Notes under the pieces: model-generated | What the model was told of the DNA's origin: nothing | The model's database searches: none | Seen by the model: the letters and a program-made list of their open reading frames with translations, nothing else | In this document: piece after piece, positions 24,336 through 61,585 of the stretch | Layout: the number at the start of each line of letters is the position of its first letter | Position numbering within the stretch: position 1 is the stretch's first letter | Position numbers and translations under genes: made by a program | Source of the DNA: Gemmatimonadota bacterium | Lineage (GTDB): Bacteria > Gemmatimonadota > Gemmatimonadetes > Gemmatimonadales > GWC2-71-9 | Direction: 5' to 3' | Length of the DNA stretch: 64,000 nucleotides | NCBI GenBank assembly: GCA_039586365.1 | Contig: JBDHKN010000006.1 | Coordinates: forward strand, 7,162 to 71,161

Positions 24336-24789
24336 GTGTGCCCTCAGTGAGTTTTCGGATGGTTCCAAGCCCAAACTCTGGCCGGTCATTTTAGCCCGAT
24401 TCCAGGGAAATGGGAACAGCAGAGGGATGCTAGGGGTGCTACTCCGACAGCCCGAGTCATCATCTCTTTCCCCAACTGTCTGACGCAAGTCTCGGCCTCG
24501 GCGTAGCTAAATGCACCGGTGCGAAGTCCCCAAACTGAATCCAAGCCACTTGCGACTCACCCAATCCCTAAAGGCAATTTGGGAGGCAGTGTGCGACCTT
24601 TTGGAGCAACAAAGATGTTGCTCATTTCGTGCTCCAACTTGGAGTTTCCTGGCATCCGCCACGTTCCTGCGCTCAAGAATTGCGGTGTCGTTACTTTAGG
24701 TTTCTGGCGGGGATTCCGTTGGAACCTTATTATCCCGCGCCTGGGTTACAGCATTCTCCTGCCGTTTGATGATTCTCGGAGGTCTGTGC

Positions 24790-26103
24790 TTGAAGGAACA
24801 AAGCTCGAGCCACAAAGAACGTTCCCGCTCCGCAGTGCTATGTGAGCGTGCTGGCAAAGTGCTCGTGGGCGGAGTGAACAGTCCGGTGCGTGCCTTCCGA
24901 GCGGTGGGAGGCAAGCCGGTCTTCATAGACCGCATGGAGGGTGCGTGCGTCCACGACGTGGATGGAAACACCTATGTAGATCTAGTGGGCAGTTGGGGGC
25001 CCTCGGTTGTGGGGCACGCGCACGCGGACGTGGTTGAGGCGGTGCGAGAGGCGGCCGCACGGGGTCTGAGTTTTGGCGCTTGTTGTGCAGCGGAGGCTGA
25101 GTTGGCGGAACTCATCGTCGGGGCCGTGCCATCCATTGAGCTGGTCCGGTTCGTCAACAGCGGTACCGAAGCTACCATGAGTGCGATCCGCCTCGCACGG
25201 GCCGCCACGGGTAGGTCCAAGATCCTCAAGTTCGTGGGGTGCTACCATGGGCACGTCGACGGGCTGTTAGTGGCTGCCGGTTCGGGAGCGGCTACGTTTG
25301 GGGTGCCCGATTCGGCTGGTGTGCCTGCATCGTACACCCGTGAAACCCTACTGGCTCAATTCAATGACTTGAAGGCAGTAGAACGGGTCATGAGCCGGCA
25401 TGGCTCGGAGGTAGCCGCGATCTTGGTTGAGCCGGTGGCGGGGAATATGGGCTACGTGGAGCCGGTTCGCGGATTCTTGGGGGGGCTGCGCACACTGTGC
25501 GATGAACATGGCAGCCTGTTGATCTTCGACGAAGTGATGACCGGCTTCAGGGTCGCGTGGGGCGGTTATCAGAACTCTTGTGGCATCAATCCCAATTTGA
25601 CCTGCTTGGGCAAAGTCATTGGTGGTGGGATGCCGGTAGCAGCCTATGGTGGTGCGAAGGAACTCATGGAGCTGGTGAGTCCTCTGGGGCCAACCTATCA
25701 AGCCGGTACGCTGAGCGGCAGCCCCGTCGGCATGGCTGCCGGTATCGCGACTCTGAAGCTGTGCAAGGCGACCGGCTTCTACGATTCGCTACATGGCAAG
25801 TCCCTGCAACTTGCGCTGGGGCTCCAAGCAGCAGCAGCTGAGGCGGGTCTTACCGTGCAGACGGGTGCCACTGGAGGGATGTTGGGTATGGCTTTCCTGG
25901 ACCGGCCGGTGCGCAACTTCGCTGACGCGCAGGCCTGCAATCACGATCTGTTTGCTGCGTTCTTCCGAGCGATGCTGGACCGGGGCGTTTGGCTGCCACC
26001 CTCGGGATACGAAGCCATGTTCCTCTCCGCCGCGCACGACGACGACGCGATCGGGCGGATTCTCGACGCAGCAAGAGAGAGCTTCCGAATTCGACTGCCA
26101 TGA
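24790..26103 (+). CDS. hemL: Glutamate-1-semialdehyde 2,1-aminomutase
   Basis: GGVNSPVRAFRAVGG, SGTEATMSAIRLAR, DEVMTGFR and the GKVIGGG lysine motif. Start is uncertain: TTG 24790, 7 nt after GGAGG, or ATG 24766. Confidence 0.92.
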   Translation: MKEQSSSHKERSRSAVLCERAGKVLVGGVNSPVRAFRAVGGKPVFIDRMEGACVHDVDGNTYVDLVGSWGPSVVGHAHADVVEAVREAAARGLSFGACCAAEAELAELIVGAVPSIELVRFVNSGTEATMSAIRLARAATGRSKILKFVGCYHGHVDGLLVAAGSGAATFGVPDSAGVPASYTRETLLAQFNDLKAVERVMSRHGSEVAAILVEPVAGNMGYVEPVRGFLGGLRTLCDEHGSLLIFDEVMTGFRVAWGGYQNSCGINPNLTCLGKVIGGGMPVAAYGGAKELMELVSPLGPTYQAGTLSGSPVGMAAGIATLKLCKATGFYDSLHGKSLQLALGLQAAAAEAGLTVQTGATGGMLGMAFLDRPVRNFADAQACNHDLFAAFFRAMLDRGVWLPPSGYEAMFLSAAHDDDAIGRILDAARESFRIRLP

Positions 26104-26990
26104 ACTCCCTACGTGTGGGAACTCGTGGCAGCGATCTGGCGCTATGGCAGGCGAACTGGATCTGTGATCGGTTGCGCGATACGCACTCAGGTGTGGCGGC
26201 CGAGCTAGTTGTCATCAAGACCCACGGTGACGTGACTGCGGATGAGAGGTTCGGTCGGACCTGGCCTGTAGGAGCGTTCGTCAGGGCGTTGGAAACGGCC
26301 CTGCTCGACGAGAGGATCGATGTCGCGGTGCACAGCTGCAAAGACCTGCAGACCACTCAGACGAGCGGGCTGCGGATTGCGGCAACGCCGGTGCGGGAAG
26401 TCGCGAACGACGTGCTCCTAACCAGCACGGGCGTACGATTGGACAGCCTGCCTCCCCTCGCGCGCATCGGGACGAGCAGTCCGCGCCGGGCCGCCCAGAT
26501 ACTACAACTGGGGGACTTCGAGATCGTCCCTCTGCGGGGCAATGTTCCGACTCGTATAGCCAAGATGGAGCAGCAAGGTCTCGATGGGATCGTGCTGGCG
26601 GCGGCCGGGCTCAGGCGGTTGGGGATCGACTATCCCCACGCGATCGACCTCCCCACGGATAGCTTCGTTCCCGCGCCGGGCCAGGGTGCGTTGGCGGTTC
26701 AGGTGCGTGCAGGGAGTGAAGCCTCGGAGCTAGTGACGGTCCTGGAGGATCCGCCGACGCGCGCAGCCGTTACCGCCGAGCGGTGTCTCCTCCGCGAGAT
26801 CAACGCGGGCTGCCACACACCGGTCGGTGCGCTGGCCACGGTGGATGCCGGGACGATATCACTCCAGGCGCAGTTGTTCAGTGACGATTACAGGCGCTGC
26901 GTGGCAGGTAGCGAGTCGGGTATGATTCCCGAGGTCATCGGAGCAAGCTTAGCCCGCAGACTGATGGAAGAGCTACGGGGCCGGCGGTAG
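26100..26990 (+). CDS. hemC: Hydroxymethylbilane synthase (porphobilinogen deaminase)
   Basis: ATG 26100 (ATGA overlap with the hemL stop) gives MNSLRVGTRGSDLALWQANW, with IKTHGD, GTSSPRR, RGNVPTR and a GCHTPVGA cysteine motif. Confidence 0.93.
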   Translation: MNSLRVGTRGSDLALWQANWICDRLRDTHSGVAAELVVIKTHGDVTADERFGRTWPVGAFVRALETALLDERIDVAVHSCKDLQTTQTSGLRIAATPVREVANDVLLTSTGVRLDSLPPLARIGTSSPRRAAQILQLGDFEIVPLRGNVPTRIAKMEQQGLDGIVLAAAGLRRLGIDYPHAIDLPTDSFVPAPGQGALAVQVRAGSEASELVTVLEDPPTRAAVTAERCLLREINAGCHTPVGALATVDAGTISLQAQLFSDDYRRCVAGSESGMIPEVIGASLARRLMEELRGRR

Positions 26991-26997: not shown

Positions 26998-28023
26998 TCA
27001 GCCGTGGGTTTCTTGCCACCAGCGGGCGTAGTCCAACGCTGCATAAGAGAATATCAGGTCTGCACCGGCGCGCGATATCCCCAAGAGCGCCTCTGTCATG
27101 CAGGCCCGGTAGTCGAGCCAACCCCTATCCGCCGCCGCTTTGATCATGGAGTATTCTCCGCTCACTTGGTATGCGGCGATTGGTAGTGCAGTACCTTTCC
27201 GGAGCCGGCTTATCACGTCGAGGTAGGGAAGAGCTGGTTTGACCATTAGGATGTCCGCACCCTCATCCTCGTCGAGCATGGCCTCGACTGACGCTTCGCG
27301 GGCGTTTGCCGGGTCAATCTGGTAAGTCTTTTTGTCCGTGGGGACGTTTGGGGCGGCAGCCGGGGCGGAATCGAGCGCCTCCCGAAATGGTCCGTAGTAC
27401 CCCGAGGCATACTTTGCGGTGTAACTCAGAATAGCCACGTCAAACGCCTCTGCCGCGTCTAGGGCAGCGCGGATGGCGGCGACCCGCCCATCCATCATGT
27501 CGGACGGAGCGACCATGTCTGCACCGGCTTCCGCATGCAGCACGGCCATCCTGGCCAACATATCTACGGTTTCATCGTTGAGTATTGTCCCATCTGGAGA
27601 GACCAGTCCGTCGTGTCCATGACTCGAATAGGGGTCAAGAGCGATATCAGTGACAATGTAGGCTTCGGGGATCGCTTGCTTCAGAGTCTGAACCGCTTGG
27701 CAGAGCAGGTTGTCCGGATTCACCGCCTCCTGCGCATCAGGTGTCTTGCGAGATGGATCGATGGCAGGGAACAGAGCGAAAGCACCTAGGCCCAGCGAAA
27801 GGGCCTCCTTACATCGCTTGATGATTAGATCTACCGACAGGCGGGCATGGCCAGGCATCGCTTCGATCGGCTGGGATATGTTCCGACCAGCTACTGTGAA
27901 CAGCGGCAGGACCAGGTGGTTGGGCCCGAGGTTGGCCTCCTGTACCAAGCCACGTATGACGGCGTTGCGTCGCAGTCGGCGGGGGCGACGCCACGGACGG
28001 GGAAGTTCGGACAGCGAATGCAT
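26998..28023 (-). CDS. hemB: Porphobilinogen synthase (delta-aminolevulinate dehydratase)
   Basis: 341 aa with RPRRLRRNAVIRGLVQE, VAPSDMMDGRV, YASGYYGPFREA, MVKPALPYLD and the active-site pattern. Confidence 0.95.
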   Translation of the reverse strand: MHSLSELPRPWRRPRRLRRNAVIRGLVQEANLGPNHLVLPLFTVAGRNISQPIEAMPGHARLSVDLIIKRCKEALSLGLGAFALFPAIDPSRKTPDAQEAVNPDNLLCQAVQTLKQAIPEAYIVTDIALDPYSSHGHDGLVSPDGTILNDETVDMLARMAVLHAEAGADMVAPSDMMDGRVAAIRAALDAAEAFDVAILSYTAKYASGYYGPFREALDSAPAAAPNVPTDKKTYQIDPANAREASVEAMLDEDEGADILMVKPALPYLDVISRLRKGTALPIAAYQVSGEYSMIKAAADRGWLDYRACMTEALLGISRAGADLIFSYAALDYARWWQETHG

Positions 28024-28166: not shown

Positions 28167-28172
28167 AAGGCC

Positions 28173-28200: not shown

Positions 28201-28218
28201 GAGAAAAGTCGCACAAAC

Positions 28219-28234: not shown

Positions 28235-28278
28235 AAAGCGCCAGCGAAGGCAGTGTTCCGTCGCTGAGCGGAGGTGCT

Positions 28279-28914: not shown

Positions 28915-29016
28915 GCGGCCGTGGCGTCCCCCGGGGATTTCCCGAAAATAATGCCAAGGATTTCTGAAGGGTCGTGCTGCCGCATTGCCCTTGGCGCCCA
29001 GTCCCAATGGTAAATC

Positions 29017-36739: not shown

Positions 36740-36844
36740 ATGTCCGAGGCCCTATTGTTGAAACCGGACCGGAAGTTCGTCGAGGCGATCGTCGCATCAG
36801 GTGGTGACGGATCTGGGCTCAGTGGGGTCTCAGAGACCGTCTAA
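36740..36844 (+). pseudogene. qmoC: 34-codon ORF encoding only the conserved QmoC N-terminus (remnant or leader of split qmoC)
   Basis: MSEALLLKPDRKFVEAIVASGGDG... follows the QmoC N-terminal pattern (xPDxxFVxxxxxxGGD) but then runs out of frame to a TAA that overlaps the next ATG (TAATG at 36842-36846). RBS AGGAG/GAGGA upstream. Confidence 0.5.
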
Positions 36845-39775: not shown

Positions 39776-40309
39776 TTGTCTCTGGACGTACTGTTGCGCA
39801 ACAGTGAAGATGCCATCCTTTCGAGATGGTTAGACGACGCATTGGCTGTGTATCCCGGAGATTCAGCTGCAATATTCAAGCGCGAGAAGGATCCCTTCGC
39901 CAACCCCATTGGACGCAGCCTCCGGGAAGGAACGCGAGGAATTCTCCGTGCCCTAGTGAACGGAAAGAATGCCGAAGTGGTGCGCCAACATGTGTCCGAG
40001 ATCATGAGGATCGGGGCGGTGCAACAGCATTCGCCCTCCCGGGCAATCGGTTTCCTGTTTTCTCTCAAGGGTGCGATCCGAGCTGAACTGCATGGAGCAG
40101 TCACGCAAGCCGAATATTCGTCCGCGTTGGCGGAACTAGACAACCAGATCGATCAGATTGGTCTGATGGCCTTCGACATCTACGTCCAGTACAGAGAGCA
40201 AGTGTGCGAGCTACGCATCAACGAAGTCAAGCGGCAGGTCTCTCGGATTGTGGACAAGATGAACAGGCGTGTTCCTGATCAGGAATTGGTCCAGATCGAT
40301 CACCCATGA
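39776..40309 (+). CDS. dsrT: DsrT-like protein (RsbRD N-terminal-type domain)
   Basis: 177 aa, TTG start after GGAGGAGGG. LSRWLDDALAVYP...DPFANPIG pattern, positioned directly upstream of dsrMKJOP as described for dsrT. Confidence 0.62.
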   Translation: MSLDVLLRNSEDAILSRWLDDALAVYPGDSAAIFKREKDPFANPIGRSLREGTRGILRALVNGKNAEVVRQHVSEIMRIGAVQQHSPSRAIGFLFSLKGAIRAELHGAVTQAEYSSALAELDNQIDQIGLMAFDIYVQYREQVCELRINEVKRQVSRIVDKMNRRVPDQELVQIDHP

Positions 40310-49828: not shown

Positions 49829-51238
49829 GTGAGCACACCGCGAGTACTGATCGCAGGGCTACGCGGAGGCAGCGGCAAGACGGTAATATCTCTGGGACTC
49901 GTGGCAACCTGGCGCAAGCAAGGTTGTCACGTTTCGCCCTTCAAGAAGGGACCAGACTACATCGATGCAGCCTGGCTATCGGCTGCGGCAGGCAAACCCT
50001 GCCGGAACCTCGATCTCTTCCTCATGACCCCAGATACGGTCCTGCGCTCGTTCGCAGCTGCGGCCGGGCCGGCCGACGTGGCTGTCATAGAGGGCAATCG
50101 CGGGTTGTTCGACGGCATGGACGCCCGGGGCAGCTACAGCACGGCCGAGTTGGCCAAGTTGCTGAAGAGCCCGGTGTTGCTCGCTGTCGATTGCACAAAG
50201 GCAACGCGTACCATCGCGGCAATGGTCCTAGGTTGTCAGAGACTCGATCCCAGCGTCTCGCTTCGCGGTGTCATTCTGAACAATGTGGCCGGTCCTCGGC
50301 ACGAGTCGGTGCTGCGTGAAGCAATGGCTGAGATCAGCGGGCTGCCCGTGGTGGGTGCGCTGGGCCGAATCCCCGGAGAGCTCTTTCCAGAACGGCACCT
50401 TGGGCTCGTGCCACCCCAAGAGCACGAGCAATTGTCTCCAGCGATACAACAGGCCGCCAGTGCGGTCGAACAGCAGTTGGACTTGGCCGCCATCTGGGAC
50501 ATTGCGCGCCAAGCTCCAGAGCTCGACCCCCACGACTCGAATCCGACTGCCACAGGTGACGAGGGGCGGAATGCCGTCAGGATCGGTGTGTTCCGCGACG
50601 CTGCATTTCAGTTCTACTATCCCGAGAACCTCGAGGCCCTGGTTCGGCAGGGGGCGATCTTGCTGGAGGTTTCTCCGCTCCACGATACTGCGCTACCGGA
50701 CGTGGATGCCCTGTACCTCGGGGGAGGATTTCCGGAGACAGCAGCACCGGCGTTGGCAGACAACAGGCAATTCCTGGACTCGCTACGTGACTCAGTCAAC
50801 AGTGGCTTGCCGGTATACGCAGAGTGCGGGGGAGCGGTCTTTCTGGGGGAGAAGCTCCTCTACAATCATAGAGAATACCCGATGGCGGGCATACTACCAG
50901 TCGTTTTCTGCTTCGAGGCAAAACCGCGGGGGCACGGCTACGCCGTACTCGAAACCGTGGAGAACAACCCGTTTTTCACAGTCGGGGAATGTCTCCAAGG
51001 GCATGAGTTCCACTACACCCACATGCAGTCGTCTGCGGTGGAGGATCTGAAGTTCGCATTCCGGGTCCGTCGCGGCTATGGATTCGATGGCCAAAGGGAC
51101 GGCTTGTGTTATCGCAATGTGCTCGCGTCCTACACTCACCTGCATGCGTTGGGGACGGAGAGTTGGGCTCCGTCCGTGGTTCGGGCCGCCACCCGGTTCA
51201 AGTCGCGGAGCGCGAGCCATACTGGCGTTGGCCTCTAG
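49829..51238 (+). CDS. dsrN: DsrN (cobyrinate a,c-diamide synthase homologue, putative siroheme amidase)
   Basis: 469 aa. IAGLRGGSGKTVISLGL P-loop and a glutamine-amidotransferase half with ECGG. Located after dsrL in the dsr cluster. Confidence 0.85.
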   Translation: MSTPRVLIAGLRGGSGKTVISLGLVATWRKQGCHVSPFKKGPDYIDAAWLSAAAGKPCRNLDLFLMTPDTVLRSFAAAAGPADVAVIEGNRGLFDGMDARGSYSTAELAKLLKSPVLLAVDCTKATRTIAAMVLGCQRLDPSVSLRGVILNNVAGPRHESVLREAMAEISGLPVVGALGRIPGELFPERHLGLVPPQEHEQLSPAIQQAASAVEQQLDLAAIWDIARQAPELDPHDSNPTATGDEGRNAVRIGVFRDAAFQFYYPENLEALVRQGAILLEVSPLHDTALPDVDALYLGGGFPETAAPALADNRQFLDSLRDSVNSGLPVYAECGGAVFLGEKLLYNHREYPMAGILPVVFCFEAKPRGHGYAVLETVENNPFFTVGECLQGHEFHYTHMQSSAVEDLKFAFRVRRGYGFDGQRDGLCYRNVLASYTHLHALGTESWAPSVVRAATRFKSRSASHTGVGL

Positions 51239-51250: not shown

Positions 51251-51904
51251 GTGCCGATCATCACAATCTCGCGGGGGACGTTGAGTGGCGGACAAGCGGT
51301 GGCTGAGTGTCTCGCTGGTAGACTTGGGTACCCGTGTGTCGGTCGCGAGATCGTTCAAGAAGCGGCCCGAAAGCTGGGTGTATCTGAGGAGACCCTGAGT
51401 GGGAAGTTCGAGACCCCCCCTGGACGATGGCATCGGCTGACTAACGAGCGTAGGCTGTACCTTCACGCGGTTCAGGCTGCCCTAGCGGACCAGTGTGTGA
51501 CTGGGGAGCTGGTTTACCACGGTCTGGCTGGGCAGCTGCTGCTGCGGGGCCAGCCCGGAGTGCTGCGAGCCCGGCTTATTGCACCATTGGATATGCGAGT
51601 GCGTGCCTTGACGGAAGCACACCATAGAATGAGCCCCAAGGCTGCGGAGGAATTCATCGAGAGCGTGGATGAAGACCGCAGGCGTTGGGTCAGACTGATG
51701 TACGGAGCCGACGTCGAGGACCCATCTCTGTACGATCTAACGATCAACCTACAGTCCATTTCCACTGAGACAGCGTGTACGAGCATTGCGGAAGCGGTTG
51801 CACAGCCACAGTACAAGATAACGGACGAAGTAAGGGCGAAGCTGGAGGCGTTCGCGGCCCAATGCCACGAACAACTGCAGGCGGCTGCGTCGCAGCGCTC
51901 ATGA
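51251..51904 (+). CDS. Cytidylate-kinase-like family protein (PF13189-type, degenerate P-loop), paralog 1
   Basis: 217 aa, GTG start. IITISRGTLSGGQAVAECLAGRLGY has the family's SR.xGSGG pattern in place of GxxGxGKS/T. Function unknown. Confidence 0.65.
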   Translation: MPIITISRGTLSGGQAVAECLAGRLGYPCVGREIVQEAARKLGVSEETLSGKFETPPGRWHRLTNERRLYLHAVQAALADQCVTGELVYHGLAGQLLLRGQPGVLRARLIAPLDMRVRALTEAHHRMSPKAAEEFIESVDEDRRRWVRLMYGADVEDPSLYDLTINLQSISTETACTSIAEAVAQPQYKITDEVRAKLEAFAAQCHEQLQAAASQRS

Positions 51905-51993: not shown

Positions 51994-52812
51994 GTGGCGA
52001 TCATTACCATCAGTCGAGGAAGCAAGAGTGGCGGGCAGGAAATGGCGGAATGTCTGGCCGCGCAACTGCAGTATCGCATCGTTGGACGAGAGATTGTACA
52101 GGAAGCGGCTACCAGGCTCGACGTTTCAGAGGAGGCCTTGAGCCACCAGATGGAGCACACACCCAAGCTGTGGGATAGGCATGCTGCGACGCGGCGGCTA
52201 TATGTGGCGGCCGTGCAAGCGGCCCTCGCCGAGTATGTGGCCGAGGGAGATCTGGTGTACCATGGCTTGGCGGGACAACTACTCCTGAGGGGCCTACCGG
52301 CTGTGCTGCGGGTGCGGCTCATCGCACCGAGAGAGAGGCGGGTCCGAACGCTGGTGGAGACGCGTCAGATGGATGAGGCCTCGGCCGAAGAGTTCATTCA
52401 GCATGTCGATGGAGCACGTGCTCGCTGGGTCAAAATGATGTACGGCGAAAACATCGAGGACCCGGCACTTTATGACATGGTGGTAAACCTGGAGACCATG
52501 TCTGTGCCCGGTGCCTGTGCTGCACTCGCGACTGTGGCAAAGCGGCCGGACTTTGCGGTTACTGGTGAGGTAAAGGCGTGTCTACGGGACTTTCGCTTGG
52601 CGTCCAACGTCAAAGTCGCGCTAGCGAGAGCACGTGAGACACGGCCTCACATTCTGGACGTGTGGGTCAGAGGGGGCGTCGTCGAGATATCCGGCAGCGT
52701 TCCCGTCCTCAAAACAGGCCGGATGGGGGATCGTATCAGCGAGGTAGCACGTTCTGTCCCCGGCGTTGAGGAAGTCCGTATGAAGCTGCAGTGGTACGAC
52801 CCGTATCCTTAG
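51994..52812 (+). CDS. Cytidylate-kinase-like family protein, paralog 2, with a C-terminal BON-like domain
   Basis: 272 aa. IITISRGSKSGGQEMAECLAAQLQY, with about half of positions identical to paralog 1 by eye over ~190 aa. The extra C-terminus VKVALARA...VWVRGGVVEISGSVP...VARSVPGVEEVRMKL resembles a BON domain. Confidence 0.65.
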   Translation: MAIITISRGSKSGGQEMAECLAAQLQYRIVGREIVQEAATRLDVSEEALSHQMEHTPKLWDRHAATRRLYVAAVQAALAEYVAEGDLVYHGLAGQLLLRGLPAVLRVRLIAPRERRVRTLVETRQMDEASAEEFIQHVDGARARWVKMMYGENIEDPALYDMVVNLETMSVPGACAALATVAKRPDFAVTGEVKACLRDFRLASNVKVALARARETRPHILDVWVRGGVVEISGSVPVLKTGRMGDRISEVARSVPGVEEVRMKLQWYDPYP

Positions 52813-52851: not shown

Positions 52852-53922
52852 GTGTCCGACTCTACTGAACAGCCTATGCCTACTATCGCGAGCACACCTG
52901 CCACAACAGGGCAGGTGCTCATAGATCCGGGAACAGCGGAAGGTCCTCAGCGGTTGCGCGTACTTCCTGCGGTGATCCGCCTAGCGGTGTTGCTCTTTGT
53001 CATCATGTTGCTCAACCCGACGGAGGTGCACGCGTGCCAGGAAGCAGCAGTGGCGGCCGACACCAGTATGACCTCATGGTGGGTGTGGCCGCTTGTTCTC
53101 TTCCTAATCACGTTTGTCATGGGGATCCTGGCTGCTCTAGGTGGTGTTGGAGGGGGAGTGCTCTTCGTGCCAATTGTCAGCGGTTTCTTCCCATTTCACC
53201 TCGACTTCGTTCGCGGCTGCGGACTGTTAGTGGCGCTGAGCGGTGCACTTGCCGCGGGTCCGGGTTTCTTGAAGATGAACTTGGCCAGTCTGCGCTTGGC
53301 CATGCCTGTGGCGTTGATTGCATCCACTTGTGCCATTATCGGCGCCATGATCGGGCTCGCGCTCCCGACGAACGTTGTGCAGACGGCGCTAGGTGCCACC
53401 ATCCTGGGGATAGTCGCCCTAATGATGGCAGCGAAGAAGTCAGAGTTCCCCGAAGTCGCCGAAGCGGACCGCCTCTCTTCAGCGCTCAAGATCTATGGTG
53501 TGTATACTGAGGCCAGTCTGGGCCGGGCGATAGACTGGAAAGTGCACCGGACGGTATACGGTCTACTTCTATTCATCATCATCGGTGTCATGGCAGGCAT
53601 GTTTGGGCTCGGCGCGGGTTGGGCCAACGTTCCGGTTCTGAACCTGGTTATGGGTGCCCCGCTCAAGATCAGCGTGGCCACCAGCAAGTTTCTCCTCTCC
53701 ATAACGGATACGTCGGCGGCTTGGATCTATGTTAACAATGGTGCTGTGATCCCGATGATGGTTGTCCCCTCGCTGGTCGGCATCATGCTGGGCTCTTTCA
53801 TCGGCGTGCGAATTTTGCGGGTCGCCAAGCCGGCGTTTGTTCGCAAGATGGTGATCGGACTGTTGCTTTTCGCCGGTGCCAAAGCGATCACCAAAGGACT
53901 AGACCTCCCGTTCATCGTCTAG
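52852..53922 (+). CDS. TauE/SafE (TSUP, DUF81) family anion permease
   Basis: 356 aa. LAALGGVGGGVLFVPI and a repeated 4-TM-type architecture typical of TSUP sulfite/sulfonate exporters. Has a long N-terminal extension. Confidence 0.8.
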   Translation: MSDSTEQPMPTIASTPATTGQVLIDPGTAEGPQRLRVLPAVIRLAVLLFVIMLLNPTEVHACQEAAVAADTSMTSWWVWPLVLFLITFVMGILAALGGVGGGVLFVPIVSGFFPFHLDFVRGCGLLVALSGALAAGPGFLKMNLASLRLAMPVALIASTCAIIGAMIGLALPTNVVQTALGATILGIVALMMAAKKSEFPEVAEADRLSSALKIYGVYTEASLGRAIDWKVHRTVYGLLLFIIIGVMAGMFGLGAGWANVPVLNLVMGAPLKISVATSKFLLSITDTSAAWIYVNNGAVIPMMVVPSLVGIMLGSFIGVRILRVAKPAFVRKMVIGLLLFAGAKAITKGLDLPFIV

Positions 53923-53941
53923 CAGAACATGAGGCATCGCA

Positions 53942-54388
53942 ATGTCTGAGGACGCAATAGAGTCGAGACCCAACGAAGAACAGTTGCTGTACGCCAAGAT
54001 CCTGGAGATTGGCATGTTCGTTGGGCTGGGGCTTCTGCTCGTAACGTTCTTCCTCTATGTCTCTGGCATAGTCGCGCCGGCGGTGCCGGTTGAGGAATTG
54101 CCCAAGTATTGGGAAATGAGCGTCCACGATTATTTGGAAGCCACAAACCACGACTATGTACACCGGGAACACGCCATCACGGGTTGGTCTTGGCTCTCTG
54201 TACTTGGAAAGGGAGACTACCTCAATTTTCTGGGGATCGCCCTACTATCTGGAGTGACGGTCGTCTGCTATTTGGGGATTGTGCCGACGCTAATCAAGAA
54301 GAGGGATCTTGTCTTCGCTGCCATCTCCTTGATGGAAGTCGTGATCCTGACGCTCGCGGCGAGCGGCATCCTCAGTGTCGGGCACTAG
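53942..54388 (+). CDS. Small membrane protein, DUF1634-like partner of TSUP permeases
   Basis: 148 aa with 3-4 TM helices, 19 nt downstream of the TauE/SafE gene. The family call is from memory of the DUF81-DUF1634 pairing and is tentative. Confidence 0.45.
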   Translation: MSEDAIESRPNEEQLLYAKILEIGMFVGLGLLLVTFFLYVSGIVAPAVPVEELPKYWEMSVHDYLEATNHDYVHREHAITGWSWLSVLGKGDYLNFLGIALLSGVTVVCYLGIVPTLIKKRDLVFAAISLMEVVILTLAASGILSVGH

Positions 54389-54437
54389 CACTTGGGTTTC
54401 TGAAGGCGGCAGTGTGACTACTGATTCTAGCGGAACC

Positions 54438-54911
54438 ATGCGGTTCCTTCCGATAGGACTTGACGTCCGTGGCAGGGTTTGCCTGGTTGTTGGCGGTGGG
54501 AGTGTAGGGACTCGCAAGGCAGTGACACTTGCTCAGGCGGGTGCAGCCGTAACGGTAGTCTCGCCTGTCGTCACTGCTGAACTTGCCGAGCAGATACGCG
54601 CTGGCCGCATCAATTGGGTGGAGGGAAAGTTCCGAGACGGGCATCTGTCTGGTGTCTTCCTCGCGGTTGCTGCTACGGATGACGATGCCTTGAATGCCAT
54701 AGTCGTCAGGGTCGCGGGGGAGCGTGGTGCCCTGGTCTGCGATGCCTCGTCAGCCGAGCGCTCTCAAGTGATCTTCGGCGCTGTGCTGGAGAGTGATGAA
54801 GCCACCGTTGCCGTCTTCACGGATGGCCGAAATCCAGCACAGGCTAGGCGGACACGCGACCAGATTGCAGGTTTCATTGCCGCGGAACGCAAGGTTGGGC
54901 CTCAGTCCTGA
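54438..54911 (+). CDS. sirC: Precorrin-2 dehydrogenase / sirohydrochlorin ferrochelatase (SirC/CysG N-terminal type)
   Basis: MRFLPIGLDVRGRVCLVVGGGSVGTRKAVTLAQAGAAVTVVSP, a Rossmann motif characteristic of siroheme synthase N-domains. Alternative starts are 54375 and 54414. Confidence 0.8.
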   Translation: MRFLPIGLDVRGRVCLVVGGGSVGTRKAVTLAQAGAAVTVVSPVVTAELAEQIRAGRINWVEGKFRDGHLSGVFLAVAATDDDALNAIVVRVAGERGALVCDASSAERSQVIFGAVLESDEATVAVFTDGRNPAQARRTRDQIAGFIAAERKVGPQS

Positions 54912-55097: not shown

Positions 55098-57344
55098 ATG
55101 TCCACGTTCACCACAGACAGCTCGGCAACATCACCCATGCACCAGGGGCGTAGCTCGCTAGTGCCGGGGCGGCGGGGAGTGTTGTTGCTCAATCTGGGAA
55201 TGCCTGGCCGAAGTGACCCTTCTTCCGTGCGCCAGTTCCTCTTGCAGTTTCTTGACGATCCTCTCGTCATCGGCTCGCTCCCGGAACTCAGGTGGCTCCG
55301 ACGGGGTCTGCGCAGTTGGATGCTCCGCTTGCGGGCAGCGCGCCTGGTGGATTCCTGCCGCACATACAGGGAGGATAGCGGGTCTCAGCCGAACATCATT
55401 GCGGAACAGGCTGCTGCGCTGGGTGCTGTTCTTCCAGAGCACTGGCGGGTATTCACGGGTACACGCTATGGGGAACCATCGATCTCTGCAGTGCTGAAGC
55501 AGATGCAGGACGAGGGTATCGAGCGAATCGTGGCAGTACCGCTGTATCCGCAATTCGACCAGGCGACCACAGGCACGATCATGCGCGAACTGTACCGTGT
55601 CGTGGGTGAAACGGCACGAAGTATGAGCCTTGCCACTCGTGCTGCGTGGCACGACGACAGCGGCTACGTGAGTGCCCAAGCGAGATTGATTGCGGAATGG
55701 GCACAGTCCCATGATCTGTGGCCGGATGACTCGCACTTGCTCTTCACGGCCTACGGTCCACCCGGTTCCGGCGTGCAGCGCGAAGATACGTACGCGCCAC
55801 AGATGAGGAGAACGGTCGATCTGGTGGCTCAACGGTTAGGCTGGTCTGCGGATCTAGTGTCATTAGCCTTCCAGGGACGGTTCGGTATGGAGCCGGGCCC
55901 CGCATGTAGGCCCATCGCCGGCGACGAGCTGGAGCGACTTGCTCGTTTGGGTGTCAAGAAGGTGCTCGTCTGCCACCTCACCTTTGCCGAGCAGGGTGTG
56001 GGTGCCGTGCGGCAGATAGATGGGCAGTCCCAGAAGTTGTTCGCAGCAAGCGGAGGTCGTCTCCACAATTGCCCGACTCTCTACACACAGAGACCGTTTA
56101 TCTCCGCGTTGCGAAGCTTGGTAATAGGAGGTCCTAGGCCGGCTTCGGGCCGAGGGGCTAAACCTCTTCTGGTGCCCAGACTCGACACGGGTCTGACGGA
56201 CGACGATCCGAAGGCTCTGGTGATGATCGGGACGTCGCTGGCAAGGCGGCTGCGGTCCGGGCGCGGTCCGCATCTGAAGCACAACCACCCTGGCGTGTTC
56301 GCCAAGGTACGCAAGTCACGGAAGACCTTGCTGGGATTCCTGGATTGGGTCCGTGAGGAGGGGATTGTCAAGGAGGCGTTCGTCTGGAACACGTGCCAGC
56401 GGCTCGAGTTCTACGGATGGCTCGCGGATCCGGATGACTCCGTCGACCGCGAGTGGGTCGTCGCGACAGTGCGGAGCAGACTGTTCGAGACCGAACCAGA
56501 AGACCTCCATGTCAACGTGTTGTTTGGCGTCAACGCCTGGCATCACCTAATGCGCACAGCGTCTGGATTGAATAGCGCGCTGCCAGGGGACACGGACGTG
56601 GTGGCACAACTGCAAACGTCCTGCCAGATAGCCGAACGTGCGAGGGTTGCGGGCCCAATCGCAGCTCGACTGGTAAGGAGCGCAGTGGAGCTGACCCACA
56701 AAGTACGCGCTGAAACTGCGTGGGGCCAGTTCAGCTCTGGGTACTGCCTCGCTGCTCTGTCCCACGTTCGTGCAGTGAGCGGCGTCGATCTAGACGCGTG
56801 TCGCCACCTCGTCATTGGTGGCTCAGCCACGTCACGTTCAGTGCTGTCCACACTGTCTCAGGAGTTCGCTGTCCCCCAACATAGAATGACGTTGGCTTAT
56901 CGAGACCACCATGGTCAGATGAAGCTATTGCGGGCGGCTCTCGGCCACGGCAAACGCCAGCGCGTGCATTCGTATTCAGAGGAAAGTGTCCTGCGCGCGA
57001 TCGCTGACGCAGACTTTGTGTTTTTCGGTATCGATCACCCACAACCGGTATTGGACGCTGAGGTGATCGGTGGTTTGCGGGATTTCACGAAGCGACCTCT
57101 GACGATCGTCGATTTCAATAGCTATGGTTCAATGCGCTACTCGAGTATCCCTGATGGTGTGAGAGTGTGGACCGAAGCAGAGTTGGATCGAGCAGTTGCG
57201 GCGTATGCCGACCTGATGTGCTCTCGGGCCGAGTTCTCCGCGGCCGTAGAAGCCATGGAAACGTGGATAGAAGACCGCCTACCGGTGTCCGATGTGGATG
57301 CTGACTCCAAGACTGAAATCAGTGCAGCCAAGAGTACTATATGA
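55098..57344 (+). CDS. Fusion protein: ferrochelatase-like N-domain plus glutamyl-tRNA reductase (HemA)-like C-domain
   Basis: Residues ~25-330 carry HemH-family blocks (LLLNLGMPGRSDPSSVRQFLLQFLDDPLVI, VAVPLYPQFDQATTG). Residues ~340-748 carry HemA blocks (FVWNTCQRLEFY vs STCNRTEIY; HLMRTASGLNSALPGDTDVVAQ vs [22 protein letters not shown]). It is a single uninterrupted 748-codon ORF. Confidence 0.7.
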   Translation: MSTFTTDSSATSPMHQGRSSLVPGRRGVLLLNLGMPGRSDPSSVRQFLLQFLDDPLVIGSLPELRWLRRGLRSWMLRLRAARLVDSCRTYREDSGSQPNIIAEQAAALGAVLPEHWRVFTGTRYGEPSISAVLKQMQDEGIERIVAVPLYPQFDQATTGTIMRELYRVVGETARSMSLATRAAWHDDSGYVSAQARLIAEWAQSHDLWPDDSHLLFTAYGPPGSGVQREDTYAPQMRRTVDLVAQRLGWSADLVSLAFQGRFGMEPGPACRPIAGDELERLARLGVKKVLVCHLTFAEQGVGAVRQIDGQSQKLFAASGGRLHNCPTLYTQRPFISALRSLVIGGPRPASGRGAKPLLVPRLDTGLTDDDPKALVMIGTSLARRLRSGRGPHLKHNHPGVFAKVRKSRKTLLGFLDWVREEGIVKEAFVWNTCQRLEFYGWLADPDDSVDREWVVATVRSRLFETEPEDLHVNVLFGVNAWHHLMRTASGLNSALPGDTDVVAQLQTSCQIAERARVAGPIAARLVRSAVELTHKVRAETAWGQFSSGYCLAALSHVRAVSGVDLDACRHLVIGGSATSRSVLSTLSQEFAVPQHRMTLAYRDHHGQMKLLRAALGHGKRQRVHSYSEESVLRAIADADFVFFGIDHPQPVLDAEVIGGLRDFTKRPLTIVDFNSYGSMRYSSIPDGVRVWTEAELDRAVAAYADLMCSRAEFSAAVEAMETWIEDRLPVSDVDADSKTEISAAKSTI

Positions 57345-57387: not shown

Positions 57388-57744
57388 ATGCTGATCTTGA
57401 TTGCACACGGCAGCCGGCGGTCAGAATGGAGAGCGTCTGCAGAGGGTCTGGTCAAATCGCTGCAAACGGACATAGGTCGCGACGCTGTACAGCTCGCTTA
57501 CATGGATTGTACACCGCCGACGCTCATGGAAGTAGTATCCAAAGCGGTACAGCAAGGAATCAAACGAATTCGAGTGCTGCCACTATTTCTAACAGCCGAA
57601 GGACACGTGACCCGTGATATTCACCCTCTTGTGGAGGAGGCACGTGAGTCATATGCCGATGTTGTGTTGGAGCTGCTACCACCAGTTGGCCAGCATCCGA
57701 TGTTCCTGGAACTACTGAAGACAATTGCCATCCGGGAGCCGTGA
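57388..57744 (+). CDS. cbiX: Short CbiX-type sirohydrochlorin chelatase
   Basis: 118 aa. MLILIAHGSRRSEW and VLPLFLTAEGHV (catalytic-His regions), with the length of CbiX(S). Confidence 0.8.
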   Translation: MLILIAHGSRRSEWRASAEGLVKSLQTDIGRDAVQLAYMDCTPPTLMEVVSKAVQQGIKRIRVLPLFLTAEGHVTRDIHPLVEEARESYADVVLELLPPVGQHPMFLELLKTIAIREP

Positions 57745-57748
57745 ATAC

Positions 57749-59296
57749 ATGACGACCGACGGAAGCAAACGGCCACCTGGTATCGTCTATCTAGTGGGTG
57801 CCGGTCCTGGGGATCCCGGTCTAATCACGCTGCGCGCTGTTGAGTGTCTTGGACGGGCCGATGTGGTCATATACGATTATCTCGTCAACCCGGTCCTAGT
57901 CAGGCACGCCGCGGCTGCTGCGGAACTCGTCTGTCTTGGTCGCCCAACTACAGGACGCACTGTCTCCCAGGCAGAGATCAACCAACTAATGCTGGAGGCG
58001 GCTCAGGACGGCAAGATAGTCGTGCGGTTGAAGGGTGGGGATCCCTCGGTATTTGGCCGTGGGGCCGACGAGACAGGAGCCCTGCGGGAGGCAGGAATCC
58101 CCTTCGAGGTTATTCCGGGCATCACAGCTGGCCTAGCGGTCGGAGCCTACTGCGAAATCCCAATTACCCATCACGAGGATGCATCAGCTATCGCGTTGAT
58201 AACGGGTCGGGAACGTGACGAGAAAGGGGAGTCTGCCATTGATCACGCTGCGCTGGCCCGCTTCCCTGGCACACTCGTCTTCTACATGGGAGTCGAAAAG
58301 GTGACTCAGTGGAGCCAAGGCTTGATCGGACACGGAAAGCCACCCGAGACTCCCGTTGCAGTCGTTCGGTGGTGCACGCGTGCCCAGCAGCAAGAGATCC
58401 GCTGCACGCTGGGTACGGTTGCCGATACCATTAGGGACCACGCGCTGCGTCCACCGGCACTGTTCGTAGTAGGCAAAGCGGTGGACCGCGCGCCTGTGCG
58501 CTCCTGGTTCACAGAGCGACCGCTGTTCGGGCAGCGAATTCTCGTACCGGGATCGCAGACAACGTCTGACAGACTGCGCGACAGACTTGCAGAACTCGGG
58601 GCGGATGCGATCACGCAGCCGGCGATTCGGATTAGCGAACCGGCTGACTGGGCAGCCGTGGATGATGCACTGGACAAGCTTGGCCAATACGATTGGCTGG
58701 TGTTCTCGAGTGGAAACGGCGTTGACTACTTGCTCAGAAGAATTGAATACCGGGGTGGGGATGTGCGCTGGCTAGGACGCATCAAGCTTGCGGCTATGGG
58801 CTCGGGCACTGCCGAGCGGTTGGCCCACTATCACCTCAAAGCAGATCTGGTCCCTGCGCAGTTCGTGGCGGAATCCCTGGCGGGTACACTTGTGGGAGAA
58901 GCTGAACGCAGGCGATTTCTGCTGGCCCGGGCTAGCAGGGGTCGGGAAGTGCTGGCAATGGAGCTGAGAGAGGCTGGGGCCCACGTCGATCAGATTGTTG
59001 TGTACGACAGTGTTGATGTTGAGGAACCCGACCCTGACGTAGCCGCTCAGCTCACGGCTGGGGCGATCCATTGGATCACAGTCACGAGTTCGGCCGTAGC
59101 CCGCTCCCTGGTGAACCTCTACGGTGACGACCTTGCAGCGGCGAGAATCGCCAGCATCGGTCCAGTGACCTCTGGTACACTACGCGATTTGGGTCACGAA
59201 CCTTCAGTCGAGGCCACGCCACAATCGATCGAGGGTCTGGTGGAGGCGATTCAGCGTTTGTCGACTGTCGACCGACGACTGACGATGCACGATTGA
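57749..59296 (+). CDS. cobA-hemD: Bifunctional uroporphyrinogen-III C-methyltransferase / uroporphyrinogen-III synthase
   Basis: N-half: VYLVGAGPGDPGLITLRAVECLGRADVVIYD and RLKGGDPSVFGR (SUMT). C-half of ~250 aa with a HemD-like pattern (ILVPGSQ...WLVFSSGNGV...WITVTSS). Confidence 0.9.
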   Translation: MTTDGSKRPPGIVYLVGAGPGDPGLITLRAVECLGRADVVIYDYLVNPVLVRHAAAAAELVCLGRPTTGRTVSQAEINQLMLEAAQDGKIVVRLKGGDPSVFGRGADETGALREAGIPFEVIPGITAGLAVGAYCEIPITHHEDASAIALITGRERDEKGESAIDHAALARFPGTLVFYMGVEKVTQWSQGLIGHGKPPETPVAVVRWCTRAQQQEIRCTLGTVADTIRDHALRPPALFVVGKAVDRAPVRSWFTERPLFGQRILVPGSQTTSDRLRDRLAELGADAITQPAIRISEPADWAAVDDALDKLGQYDWLVFSSGNGVDYLLRRIEYRGGDVRWLGRIKLAAMGSGTAERLAHYHLKADLVPAQFVAESLAGTLVGEAERRRFLLARASRGREVLAMELREAGAHVDQIVVYDSVDVEEPDPDVAAQLTAGAIHWITVTSSAVARSLVNLYGDDLAAARIASIGPVTSGTLRDLGHEPSVEATPQSIEGLVEAIQRLSTVDRRLTMHD

Positions 59297-59362: not shown

Positions 59363-60025
59363 TCAATAGTCAGTCGTCAATCGGCTGGCTAGTTGGGCCA
59401 CAGTAGTTCGCTTGAGCACTCTGTCTTCGTACAAATCCACCGGACCCTCGTCAGAGAGCAAGTCCTGCCTTCCTGTCAGGATGGCGGCCTGCCCCAGCTC
59501 TCCCAGACACCAGACAGCCATGCCGCGAGACTGCGGCTTGGGGTCCTTCAGGGCTGCGGCAATCGCCGGCATGACTTCCTGAACATGATCGCCTGCTAGA
59601 GCGCCAACACGACCTATGGCCCAGAGTGCGCCAGGTCTGAAGTGCTCGAGATCCTCCTCAGCTAGCTCCAAAATCAGTGTCACTACTATTGGTATGTACT
59701 CGCCGAAGAGCGCCGGCATGTGGTGAACAACTTCGGCAATTGCCTCCGGTGCGTGCCAGCAGATGCCGCCAGACTCTTCGGTTATCAGCCAGAACAAGCG
59801 CCGCAGGTGTTCTCGGACGTAGGCGGGATCGTCGTTCGCGATGCGGACGGCCGCCAATGCCTGTGCCTCGACGGCACGCCAGCAGATTTGTGGATCCTCG
59901 TCATAGGTGAGAGAAATGAGGACTTTGAGGATACGCCTCCTCGTCGCCGCCATTTCAGCAATCTGTTCAAGTTGCCCTTGATCGAGCAGCTGTCGCAGGG
60001 TGTGTTTGAGTGCGATGTGTGCCAT
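59363..60025 (-). CDS. HEAT/armadillo-like repeat protein (possibly DVU0298-type family)
   Basis: ATG 60025 (MAHIALKHTLRQLL...). Helical-repeat composition with ICWRAVEA...ICWHAPEAIAEV...ALWAIGRVG...AVWCLGELG. The family name is recalled, not verified. The upstream 65 codons of the track ORF look non-coding. Confidence 0.45.
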   Translation of the reverse strand: MAHIALKHTLRQLLDQGQLEQIAEMAATRRRILKVLISLTYDEDPQICWRAVEAQALAAVRIANDDPAYVREHLRRLFWLITEESGGICWHAPEAIAEVVHHMPALFGEYIPIVVTLILELAEEDLEHFRPGALWAIGRVGALAGDHVQEVMPAIAAALKDPKPQSRGMAVWCLGELGQAAILTGRQDLLSDEGPVDLYEDRVLKRTTVAQLASRLTTDY

Positions 60026-60241
60026 CCGTAGTAATCCTAGATTGTCGCCGGCCCTACTCCCGGGAGATACCCCACGAAGCATACCGTGTCTATCTGCGAC
60101 GTCAATTTCAGTATAGTGCAACCTGTGTGACTGTTGTCTGATTGCTCTTTCATCACGGAGTGCTATACTGAAAAACCAGTGTGGGTTGGAGAACCGAGGT
60201 GCATGGATTGCGGGAGACACGTACTGGAAGGAGGATGTCGC

Positions 60242-61585
60242 ATGAGCGACCGTGAGGGCATAGCAGCTCTTTGGACCAAGGAAGACTGGTGGGCGGTCTG
60301 GCTCGGGTTGGGGATCATCGCCTGTGCGATCGTCTTCTTTGTGGCAGGAGGCACGCTCAGACCATTGGCCGTCAGCCCTCCGAGGGATTGGACGGTATTT
60401 TCAAGGGTAACATCACATTTTGCTGAGAACTGGATCTGGTACGTTCTGCTCTACCTGGTGTTCGGCGGCGTATTCACGTTGAGTACGTCTGTCATGGGCC
60501 ACAAGGCGAAGCAATACGTACCCGGCTTCACGCTGATATTCCTGGTCTCAGTTTTCATCCTAGTAGTCAGCCAGAGTCAGTTCTTCCACTACTACAGTCT
60601 GGAGGCGCCGTTGGTGGCGCTCATCCTGGGCCTTTTCGTCGGGAACTTCGCCAGGCTGCCCGATTGGCTCGACAGTTCTCTCAGGACCGAGTACTACATC
60701 AAGACAGGCATTGTTTTGCTGGGTGCAACCTTGCCGCTGACCTTGATCGTCACCGCTGGGCCGATCGCCTTTCTTCAAGCTACTATTGTATCGCTCTGCA
60801 CATGGCTGGCAATGTTTTTCTTCGCGACCCGCGTGTTCAAACTCGACAAGCGCTTCGGAGCGGTACTTGGAGCCGGTGGTGCTGTGTGTGGAGTCTCTGC
60901 ATCCATCGCGGTTGGTGGAGCGGTGAAGGCAGACAAGGAACACGTGGCAATCAGCATATCGATTGTATCTCTGTGGGCACTCGTCATGATCTTCTTCCTG
61001 CCACTGGCGAGCAAGGCTCTGGGCCTTCATCCGGGCGTGGCGGGAGCCTGGATAGGAACCAGCGAGTTTGCTGACGCCGCGGGCTACGCGGCCGCGCAGA
61101 CTATTGCTTCGAACTCCGGCAACGAAGCTGCCATCCAGACCTTCACTCTCATGAAAGTGATCGGACGGGATATCTGGATCGGGATCTGGGCGTTCGTGCT
61201 GTCGATCGTCTCTGTGGCCCTGTGGGAGCGAGGGTCCAACACGGGGGGCTCGACGGTGGGAGTAGGGGTCATATGGTCACGATTCCCGAAGTTCGTTATC
61301 GGGTTCTTCCTCGCCTCAGTAATCATGAGCATCCTGGTGGCGAGTTCCTCGGCCGACTACGCAGCCGACATTACACCGAGGCTCATTACGCCCATCAAGA
61401 CACTGCGGACTTGGACGTTTGTCTTCACGTTCCTTTGCATCGGTCTCACCACACGATTTCGTGATCTGGCCAAGTTTGGAATGCCACCCTTCTGGGCATT
61501 TACTGTCGGTGTTCTCGTGAATGTTCCACTGGGCTACTTCTTGTCCACAGTGGTTTTCGGTGACTACTGGATGGCTGTGCAGTGA
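60242..61585 (+). CDS. YeiH/UPF0324-type putative sulfate-exporter family membrane transporter
   Basis: ATG 60242, 7 nt after GGAGG. ~447 aa, 10 or more TM helices, with the KTGIVLLGATL motif typical of the family. Confidence 0.68.
   Translation: MSDREGIAALWTKEDWWAVWLGLGIIACAIVFFVAGGTLRPLAVSPPRDWTVFSRVTSHFAENWIWYVLLYLVFGGVFTLSTSVMGHKAKQYVPGFTLIFLVSVFILVVSQSQFFHYYSLEAPLVALILGLFVGNFARLPDWLDSSLRTEYYIKTGIVLLGATLPLTLIVTAGPIAFLQATIVSLCTWLAMFFFATRVFKLDKRFGAVLGAGGAVCGVSASIAVGGAVKADKEHVAISISIVSLWALVMIFFLPLASKALGLHPGVAGAWIGTSEFADAAGYAAAQTIASNSGNEAAIQTFTLMKVIGRDIWIGIWAFVLSIVSVALWERGSNTGGSTVGVGVIWSRFPKFVIGFFLASVIMSILVASSSADYAADITPRLITPIKTLRTWTFVFTFLCIGLTTRFRDLAKFGMPPFWAFTVGVLVNVPLGYFLSTVVFGDYWMAVQ

Follow-up and report, generated by a model that had tools for sequence, protein, structure and literature searches.

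A divergent glutamyl-tRNA reductase-like clade coupled to ferrochelatase, and its apparent pseudoenzyme half in a siroheme gene block of a Gemmatimonadota bacterium

Introduction

In most bacteria, archaea and plants, tetrapyrrole synthesis is committed at the reaction of glutamyl-tRNA reductase (GluTR, HemA), and no other step of the pathway is regulated so heavily. The locus described here raises the question of which protein takes that step where no ordinary hemA gene is seen. We analysed a 64,000-nucleotide stretch of DNA from a Gemmatimonadota bacterium (hereafter the window; assembly GCA_039586365.1, contig JBDHKN010000006.1, positions 7,162 to 71,161), in which one open reading frame (ORF) joins a ferrochelatase (HemH)-like half to a GluTR-like half. 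An initial annotation, made from the letters alone, had listed substituted catalytic motifs in both halves and proposed either a built-in (siro)heme sensor or a divergent bifunctional enzyme. Our preferred reading, at a probability of about 0.6, is that the fusion is the GluTR feeding the tetrapyrrole pathway, mainly that of siroheme, of dsr-carrying Gemmatimonadota, and that it carries a non-catalytic ferrochelatase remnant. Judged from sequence, what deserves attention is a divergent GluTR clade with an ancestral tie to ferrochelatase; in this gene, the chelatase half appears as a pseudoenzyme remnant.

Results

The fusion is a genuine and conserved gene

As initially annotated, the fusion is a single intact ORF of 748 amino acids, which begins with ATG. 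Pfam placed a Ferrochelatase domain at residues 26-342 (E 9e-55) and a GlutR_N domain at residues 409-540 (E 1e-18). An AlphaFold2 model built with 47 relatives as input had a mean predicted local distance difference test score (pLDDT) of 84.5, and its domains were individually confident. Its best Foldseek matches in the PDB were GluTRs from Arabidopsis and Methanopyrus (5yjl, 1gpj and 4n7r) and the ferrochelatases of human, yeast and Bacillus. The mutual orientation of the two halves is unreliable (predicted template modelling score 0.54), and we therefore make no argument from contacts between them.

In a word-indexed search of 5.8 billion proteins, the two-domain architecture was present in 74 of the 75 clusters returned, among which the named organisms were Gemmatimonadota, Zixibacteria and Planctomycetota metagenome-assembled genomes (MAGs). 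To estimate selection, codons were compared with those of the two nearest relatives, which are 78% and 85% identical, and the ratio of nonsynonymous to synonymous substitution rates (dN/dS) was taken. This ratio was 0.30-0.37 in the HemH-like half, 0.19-0.24 in the GluTR catalytic domain and 0.09-0.11 in the Rossmann domain, the most constrained part of the gene, and 0.06-0.18 in nine neighbouring genes. The HemH-like half thus evolves approximately twice as fast as the C-terminal half, yet it is constrained. Identity to Gemmatimonadota relatives was 30-43% for the N-terminal half, 48-60% for the C-terminal half and ~60-89% for neighbouring genes, and the C-terminal half was also far better conserved family-wide.

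A frameshift or assembly artefact joining two genes, the outcome against which the initial annotation had asked for a check, was rejected because the architecture recurs across homologous clusters and dN/dS is below 0.4 in both halves, indicating purifying selection throughout the gene. The annotation had also known of no report of such a fusion; in full-text literature searches and reviews, we likewise found neither a natural HemH-GluTR fusion nor this GluTR clade described.

The GluTR-like half carries the signature of a divergent clade

On alignment to GluTR structures, the C-terminal half reads TCQR for TCNR, GDTDV for GE.QI and GGSATS for GAGKMG. These three strings, and the two in the HemH-like half described below, stand where the initial annotation had read them. 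The interpretation of those in the GluTR-like half as local substitutions did not hold, as they belong to the near-invariant hallmark of a divergent clade. Similarly, the annotation was right that the nicotinamide adenine dinucleotide phosphate (NADPH) loop reads GGSATS, but the departure from the third Gly of GxGxxG carries no weight, because that Gly is unconserved in canonical GluTRs too (GxGx(M/T)x in ~50 canonical sequences); the real change is from the second Gly to Ser.

Across 47 aligned relatives, the invariant residues of the catalytic domain were T432, C433, R435, E437, H483, S493, G497 and D500, and those of the nucleotide domain were G574, T578, R602 (matching the Arg in canonical NRT) and D672 (matching the Asp in D(I/L)AVPR). 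For glutamate recognition in Escherichia coli GluTR, we take the relevant residues to be T49, R52, E54, H99, S109, E114 and Q116. The equivalents of the Thr, Arg, Glu, His and Ser of this set are kept (T432, R435, E437, H483 and S493), while Asp stands in place of both the Glu and the Gln of GE.QI (D498 and D500). Near-invariant signatures of the clade include NTC(Q/H)RxE(F)YG, HHLMRTASGLNSxLPGDxDV, (V/I)IGGS(A/T)TSRS and YR(D/G)HHGQ(M/L)KLLR, followed by GKRLRV(H/Q)SY, FGIDxxEP and DFN(S/T)FGS. The best structural match of the model was the NADPH-bound GluTR 5yjl (E 3e-16).

Canonical GluTR has a three-domain architecture, and its mechanism has been reviewed (PMC7242693, PMC4726326). In the present protein, only two helices (residues 693-708 and 713-725) follow the Rossmann domain, and the region after TCxR spans ~315 residues compared with ~380 in canonical enzymes. 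This C-terminus, shorter by ~55-65 residues and reduced to two short helices, indicates that the dimerisation domain is missing.

An exhaustive phmmer search with the C-terminal half returned 64 representatives at E <= 1e-30, whereas canonical GluTRs appeared at ~1e-13 or weaker. In a neighbour-joining tree, computed without support values, the divergent sequences formed one clade and the canonical ones stood apart. The clade also includes standalone members of ~390-400 amino acids and a low-GC subgroup of ~355-375 amino acids. Other members are fused differently: a 1269-residue protein (P0091) combines HemH, the divergent GluTR and a radical S-adenosylmethionine HemN-like domain, and three proteins (P0075 at L005, P0089, and L021 at L021:1536-3443) join SirC to the divergent GluTR. 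Every fusion partner seen was a tetrapyrrole enzyme. At L023, the genes are unfused: a 349-residue hemH overlaps a 403-residue GluTR-like gene by 4 nt, and hemN and hemE come after the latter. This adjacent arrangement is likely the pre-fusion state.

The low-GC standalone subgroup (P0160, P0162, P0188, P0215 and P0225, the last at L024:10001-11062; 29.6% GC) pairs a canonical-looking GSGxT loop with a DFNS motif, and it adjoins resB/ccsA near hemD. An intermediate stage of evolution may be represented here. The idea that P0160, P0162, P0188 and P0215 were leptospiral HemA proteins with experimental support was dropped, as the contig of 29.6% GC showed no link to Leptospira.

The clade occupies the hemA position in heme operons

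In distant relatives, the divergent GluTR clade occupies the hemA position of otherwise complete heme operons. On a 0.8-Mb metagenomic contig (L002/L003) and a Planctomycetota contig (L004), the order is fusion-hemN-hemE-hemY-hemB with hemD-hemC-hemL divergent, and the fusion is the sole GluTR homologue at the locus. A deep-branching member with 32% identity (L027) heads the order fusion-hemN-hemE-hemY. At L028, the order is fusion-hemE-hemN-hemY-ferrochelatase (339 amino acids)-hemL-hemC-hemD with hemB adjacent, and the HemH half of that fusion is degenerate. Each heme step is present once at L028, with the C-terminal half of the fusion as sole candidate for the first. The solo 339-residue ferrochelatase-family gene of this operon (L028:16147-17166) has the atypical motifs AAHGTVVSP ... 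FTTDNAETA.

A canonical hemA was sought with a profile of 40 canonical GluTR sequences against all six-frame ORFs of the window and of loci L001-L026. It matched this gene family only, apart from weak Rossmann matches to sirC, and the gene tables of L027 and L028 held no other GlutR_N gene. The statement of the initial annotation that the window has no separate hemA was thereby borne out, and so was its tetrapyrrole gene set (hemL, hemC, hemB, cobA-hemD, sirC and cbiX). No ahb genes and no second hemH or hemA were seen in the window. As the deviations of the GluTR-like half are the conserved hallmark of a clade that fills the hemA slot, they point to a working rather than a degenerate enzyme.

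The HemH-like half has lost its catalytic residues

The N-terminal half passes the hemH model TIGR00109 (143.1 against a cut-off of 124.6), matches human, yeast and Bacillus subtilis ferrochelatases in Foldseek with target-normalised template modelling scores of 0.7-0.79, and retains the ferrochelatase core motifs YPQ(F/Y)..TTG and W.D..GY..A.A. On alignment to human ferrochelatase, however, Y219 stands at the His of SAHSLP, Q299 and G300 at D340 and H341, G302 at E343, and A270 at the porphyrin-pocket W310. The E343 column is marked by the E343Q and E343D variant chains, which place Q and D opposite G302, and the acidic-motif equivalent in B. subtilis, E264, is not retained. The claim that this half is without catalytic motifs was therefore upheld. 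With the His, Asp, His, Glu and Trp equivalents all replaced, we judge the HemH half of this gene to be non-catalytic, and chelatase function to have been lost here and, repeatedly, elsewhere.

Among the 75 members, the catalytic His is kept in 36, the Glu in 34 and both in 28. Tyr occurs in the His column solely in the query, P0002 and P0003. At the His/Asp/His/Glu positions, the query and the two sequences nearest to it read Y, Q, G and G/D/H, and replacement residues vary from one close clade to the next (Y, D, S, P, Q, E and others). Approximately 45 of the 75 members (~60%) are without a lid region of ~55 residues (query residues 36-92). Degenerate HemH halves are retained in separate lineages (P0095, P0103-P0108, P0114, P0118, P0124 and P0131). 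Heme-operon members keep SAH(S/G)(L/M)P...GDPY and DCLETLEE, and such relatives are probably bifunctional by sequence.

The fold of the HemH half is maintained by selection and the domain is replaceable by SirC, as would be expected of a domain that serves in structure or in binding a partner rather than in catalysis. A role in ligand sensing would be speculative.

The gene lies in a siroheme block beside dissimilatory sulfur genes

A block common to 17 GTDB Gemmatimonadota MAG loci and the two closest relatives runs dsrA-dsrB-(gltD/DsrL-like)-dsrN-(two cytidylate-kinase-like genes)-tauE-small membrane protein-sirC-fusion-cbiX-cobA/hemD. In L006, hemB, hemC and hemL follow the fusion directly. 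In the window, these three genes lie 27-30 kb upstream of it, beside apr, qmo-like, sat and dsrMKJOP genes. Since hemL passes its equivalog threshold (Table 1), the C5 route is used and GluTR activity is needed (PMC7242693). If the fusion supplies step one, the cassette encodes all steps from glutamyl-tRNA to siroheme, and its amidation.

Table 1. Coordinates of the fusion gene, its domains and motifs, and associated tetrapyrrole genes in the window
Feature	Coordinates	Strand	Remarks
Whole fusion ORF	55098..57344	+	748 amino acids; architecture common to homologous clusters
Ferrochelatase-fold domain, residues ~24-345, judged non-catalytic here	55167..56132	+	PF00762, 186 bits; TIGR00109, 143.1; Foldseek
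FTAYGPP, SAHSLP-motif region	55743-55763	+	string verified
Y219 codon, catalytic-His position (human H263, B. subtilis H183)	55752..55754	+	alignment to human ferrochelatase
FAEQGVGAV, replacing the (S/T)DH(I/L)ETL acidic motif	55983..56009	+	Q299, G300, G302 for D340, H341, E343
Inter-domain linker, residues 346-372	56133..56213	+	partly disordered in model; pLDDT <50 at residues 362-367
GluTR catalytic-domain homologue, residues ~373-545	56214..56732	+	PF05201; Foldseek 5yjl, 1gpj, 4n7r
TCQR, nucleophile Cys433 and Arg435 retained	56391..56402	+	usual motif TCNR
GDTDV, replacing canonical GE.QI	56586..56600	+	clade mostly PG(D/E)x(D/E)(V/I); variants exist
Rossmann-type nucleotide-binding domain, then two short helices	56733..57287	+	motifs GGSATS, YRDHHGQM, FGID, DFNSYGS
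GGSATS cofactor loop	56817..56834	+	first Gly and Thr as in canonical GxGx(M/T); second Gly replaced by Ser
sirC (precorrin-2 dehydrogenase)	54375..54911	+	immediately upstream of fusion; syntenic in most related Gemmatimonadota loci
cbiX-type small class II chelatase, candidate sirohydrochlorin ferrochelatase	57388..57744	+	43 nt downstream of fusion
cobA-hemD fusion (uroporphyrinogen-III methyltransferase and synthase)	57725..59296	+	
dsrN-like a,c-diamide synthase	49829..51238	+	part of conserved dsrAB...dsrN...sirC-fusion block
hemL (glutamate-1-semialdehyde aminomutase)	24766..26103	+	TIGR00713, 565.8 against cut-off 527.3
hemC	25989..26990	+	passes NCBIfam equivalog cut-off
hemB	26998..28023	-	passes NCBIfam equivalog cut-off

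Other genes of the window were also recorded. The longest hemC ORF and the end of hemL share 115 nt (25989-26103); the Pfam domain of this ORF begins at residue 41, so the true start is probably downstream of the hemL stop. A 316-residue ORF with no Pfam or NCBIfam match (28057-29007, minus strand) lies directly upstream of hemB on the same strand. A dissimilatory sulfur island spans 29962-51238 and includes an aprA-like flavoprotein gene, qmo/hdr-like genes, sat, dsrMKJOP, dsrAB and dsrN, together with an RsbRD_N-domain gene (39776-40309) and a gene for a 558-residue gltD/DsrL-like NAD(P)-binding iron-sulfur flavoprotein. Between its qmo-like genes and sat is a 355-residue ORF with no Pfam match (36844-37911, plus strand).

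Tandem paralogous Cytidylate_kin2-family genes (51251-51904 and 51994-52812, the second with a BON domain) lie between dsrN and tauE. The pair is conserved in the closest relative, L025, and a Cytidylate_kin2 and BON gene also occurs near the SirC-GluTR fusion locus L005. Directly upstream of sirC (52852-54388) are genes for a TauE/SafE-family permease and a 148-residue membrane protein (weak AF_1016 match in L001). These two are 63-90% identical across many Gemmatimonadota loci and may form a sulfite or anion exporter linked to the cassette. After cobA-hemD come a HEAT-repeat protein gene (59363-60220, minus strand), which recurs downstream of the cassette in L005 and L025, and a gene for a Cons_hypoth698 (YeiH-like) membrane protein (60134-61585, plus strand). 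In the dsrA, dsrN, fusion and cobA-hemD regions of L019, L020 and L022, tblastn matches were split across frames, which suggests frameshifts, possibly from long-read assembly errors or in pseudogenes. Scans of the window for tRNAs and Rfam families found nothing, and no riboswitch or tRNA-Glu linkage was evident.

Discussion

How the fusion may act and how it may have arisen

A bona fide hemL in the window requires a source of glutamate-1-semialdehyde, and we propose that the fusion provides it. Its C-terminal half (residues ~373-730) would be a GluTR of a distinct clade without the canonical dimerisation domain. Cys433 would attack glutamyl-tRNA to form a thioester, and a nicotinamide cofactor held in the remodelled Rossmann domain would reduce this to glutamate-1-semialdehyde for HemL. 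In the history that we envisage, an adjacent, overlapping pair of hemH and divergent hemA genes headed heme operons, and the two then fused in many lineages. After recruitment into the dsrN-sirC-X-cbiX-cobA/hemD siroheme block, the ferrochelatase half would have lost its catalytic His, Asp and Glu, surviving as a folded, non-catalytic appendage with a scaffold, partner-docking or ligand-sensing role. What is observed comprises the architecture, the states of the residues, the synteny, the way selection acts and the lack of a canonical hemA from the examined sequence; that the protein is a reductase, which cofactor it uses and what the dead domain does are our inferences.

Several points weigh against this proposal. 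The C-terminal half scores below the curated GluTR cut-offs (76.9 against 209.55 for TIGR01035 and 83.1 against 429 for NF000744). In its loop, Ser replaces the second Gly, and YRD, GID and DFN stand where canonical enzymes have NRT, SxT and D(I/L)AVPR. Also replaced, in both cases by Asp, are the Glu and Gln of GE.QI, which help to position the amino group of the substrate; in E. coli GluTR, the Gln is important for transfer of the hydride. The missing dimerisation domain is the basis of the canonical V-shaped dimer and of the model in which glutamate-1-semialdehyde aminomutase (GSAM) docks to it. Literature searches found no assay of any member of this clade. The absence of a canonical hemA, finally, holds for the window and the flanks of 28 related loci, and the main risk to the proposal is that such a gene lies elsewhere in these genomes.

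Alternative explanations

The sensor proposed by the initial annotation would keep a working GluTR in the C-terminal half and have it throttled allosterically by the chelatase-derived half on binding heme, siroheme or porphyrin. Heme feedback classically acts on GluTR (PMC4726326, PMC10991733), and an ancestral pairing of the first and last enzymes of the pathway would suit product sensing. Purifying selection still acts on the dead domain (dN/dS 0.30-0.37), and a degenerate HemH half is retained in several lineages, including the L028 operon, which has a separate ferrochelatase besides. However, this constraint could merely reflect the need to keep a fused domain folded. The positions that would contact a porphyrin (the His, Trp and acidic-motif equivalents) are unconserved among degenerate members, ~55 residues of the N-terminal lid region are gone from ~45 of the 75 members, and the SirC-GluTR variants do without a HemH domain entirely. 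We consider such a sensor unlikely. The other proposal of the annotation, a divergent bifunctional enzyme, suits the relatives that keep SAH(S/G)(L/M)P and DCLETLEE, which very probably are bifunctional, but it fails for this gene, where the residues are replaced. To rescue it, the HemH half would have to chelate metal through unconventional residues such as Tyr219, perhaps acting on sirohydrochlorin. Its ferrochelatase fold is intact and passes TIGR00109, and the Tyr219 position is conserved in the three closest sequences; nevertheless, all five of the His, Asp, His, Glu and Trp equivalents are gone, the replacements differ between close clades, a dedicated cbiX chelatase lies 43 nt downstream, and this half is the fastest-evolving segment of the block. 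True bifunctionality of this gene is thus very improbable.

A different doubt concerns the GluTR-like half itself, which might hydrolyse the glutamyl-tRNA thioester, transfer the glutamyl group, or serve as a regulatory or structural subunit while a canonical hemA elsewhere makes the precursor of 5-aminolevulinic acid (ALA). Canonical GluTR itself acts as an esterase when NADPH is absent (PMC4726326). Every motif that would contact the nucleotide, the cofactor loop included, has been remodelled, GE.QI has become GD.DV, the half falls under the GluTR equivalog cut-offs, and the hemA search extended over the window and related loci only. Weighing more heavily with us is that the gene stands in the hemA position in five heme operons that are otherwise complete or nearly so, belong to lineages separated by deep branches and contain no further GluTR homologue, and that no canonical GluTR was matched in the window or L001-L026. 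The most constrained domain is the nucleotide-binding one, which retains both the first Gly and the Thr, together with the Arg of the 2'-phosphate position and the Asp of beta5. The gene context suggests no acceptor substrate. A non-reductase role seems quite unlikely, and we retain the reading of the fusion as a working GluTR with a non-catalytic chelatase remnant.

Relation to known systems

Canonical GluTR (HemA/GtrR; TIGR01035; 1GPJ, 4N7R, 5YJL) shares with the clade the two-domain core fold, the T-C-x-R nucleophile motif, the H..R...GL.S segment, the first Gly and the Thr of the loop, the Arg after beta2 and the beta5 Asp, as well as operons with hemL, hemB, hemC and hemD. The clade differs in having GGS(A/T)T(S/T), YR(D/G)H, GID and DFN(S/T)xGS where canonical enzymes have GxGx(M/T), NRT, SxT and D(I/L)AVPR, in PG(D/E)x(D/E)V in place of GE.QI, and in its shorter C-terminus. 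With ferrochelatase (HemH; PpfC/CpfC; TIGR00109), the gene shares the fold, the core motifs and scores above the Pfam and TIGR00109 thresholds, but its catalytic His, D-H-x-E motif and porphyrin-pocket Trp are replaced. The source-database name "ferrochelatase" is therefore probably a wrong functional label for this gene. That relatives bear the same name fits an N-terminal half that passes TIGR00109 beside a C-terminal half that fails the GluTR cut-offs.

Tetrapyrrole enzymes are likewise combined on one polypeptide in HemH-HemQ of Cutibacterium acnes, CysG/Met8p and CobA-HemD, and the HemH-HemQ fusion was historically used to discover a pathway step (PMC13564367). Those proteins join consecutive or nearby steps, whereas HemH-GluTR joins the first and last steps of heme synthesis, and, unlike them, one of its partners appears to have become a pseudoenzyme in this lineage. 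Known controllers of GluTR, including heme acting on plant GluTR, GBP, FLU and bacterial HemX, follow a shared logic in which entry into the pathway is coupled to end-product status (PMC4726326, PMC10991733). They are, however, separate proteins or short N-terminal segments, unrelated to chelatases.

Implications

A broader view, which we offer tentatively and regard as rather unlikely, is that an uncharacterised class of GluTR without a dimerisation domain exists in Gemmatimonadota, Planctomycetota, Zixibacteria and other metagenomic lineages, as one unit with ferrochelatase that couples the first and last steps of the pathway. Once unneeded, the chelatase domain would have been kept as a tetrapyrrole-responsive or assembly module controlling ALA synthesis. 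On this view, the remodelled nucleotide site may also go with a preference for another reductant.

If real, a form of GluTR that has its own cofactor-site signature and does without a dimerisation domain would call for a wider definition of the enzyme and challenge the universality of the V-shaped-dimer/GSAM channelling model. Curated GluTR models miss the clade, so that genomes carrying it appear to be without hemA, and TIGR00109 gives the gene the name "ferrochelatase" even when it has lost the chelatase residues. Pathway reconstructions of dsr-carrying Gemmatimonadota and Planctomycetota would then err at both ends. The repeated decay of a fused partner into a retained pseudoenzyme could show how a regulatory or scaffold domain originates from an enzyme. 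In these organisms, the dsrAB-dsrN-sirC-cbiX-cobA/hemD block would be a nearly self-contained cassette, leading from glutamyl-tRNA to siroheme amide, beside the sulfite reductase.

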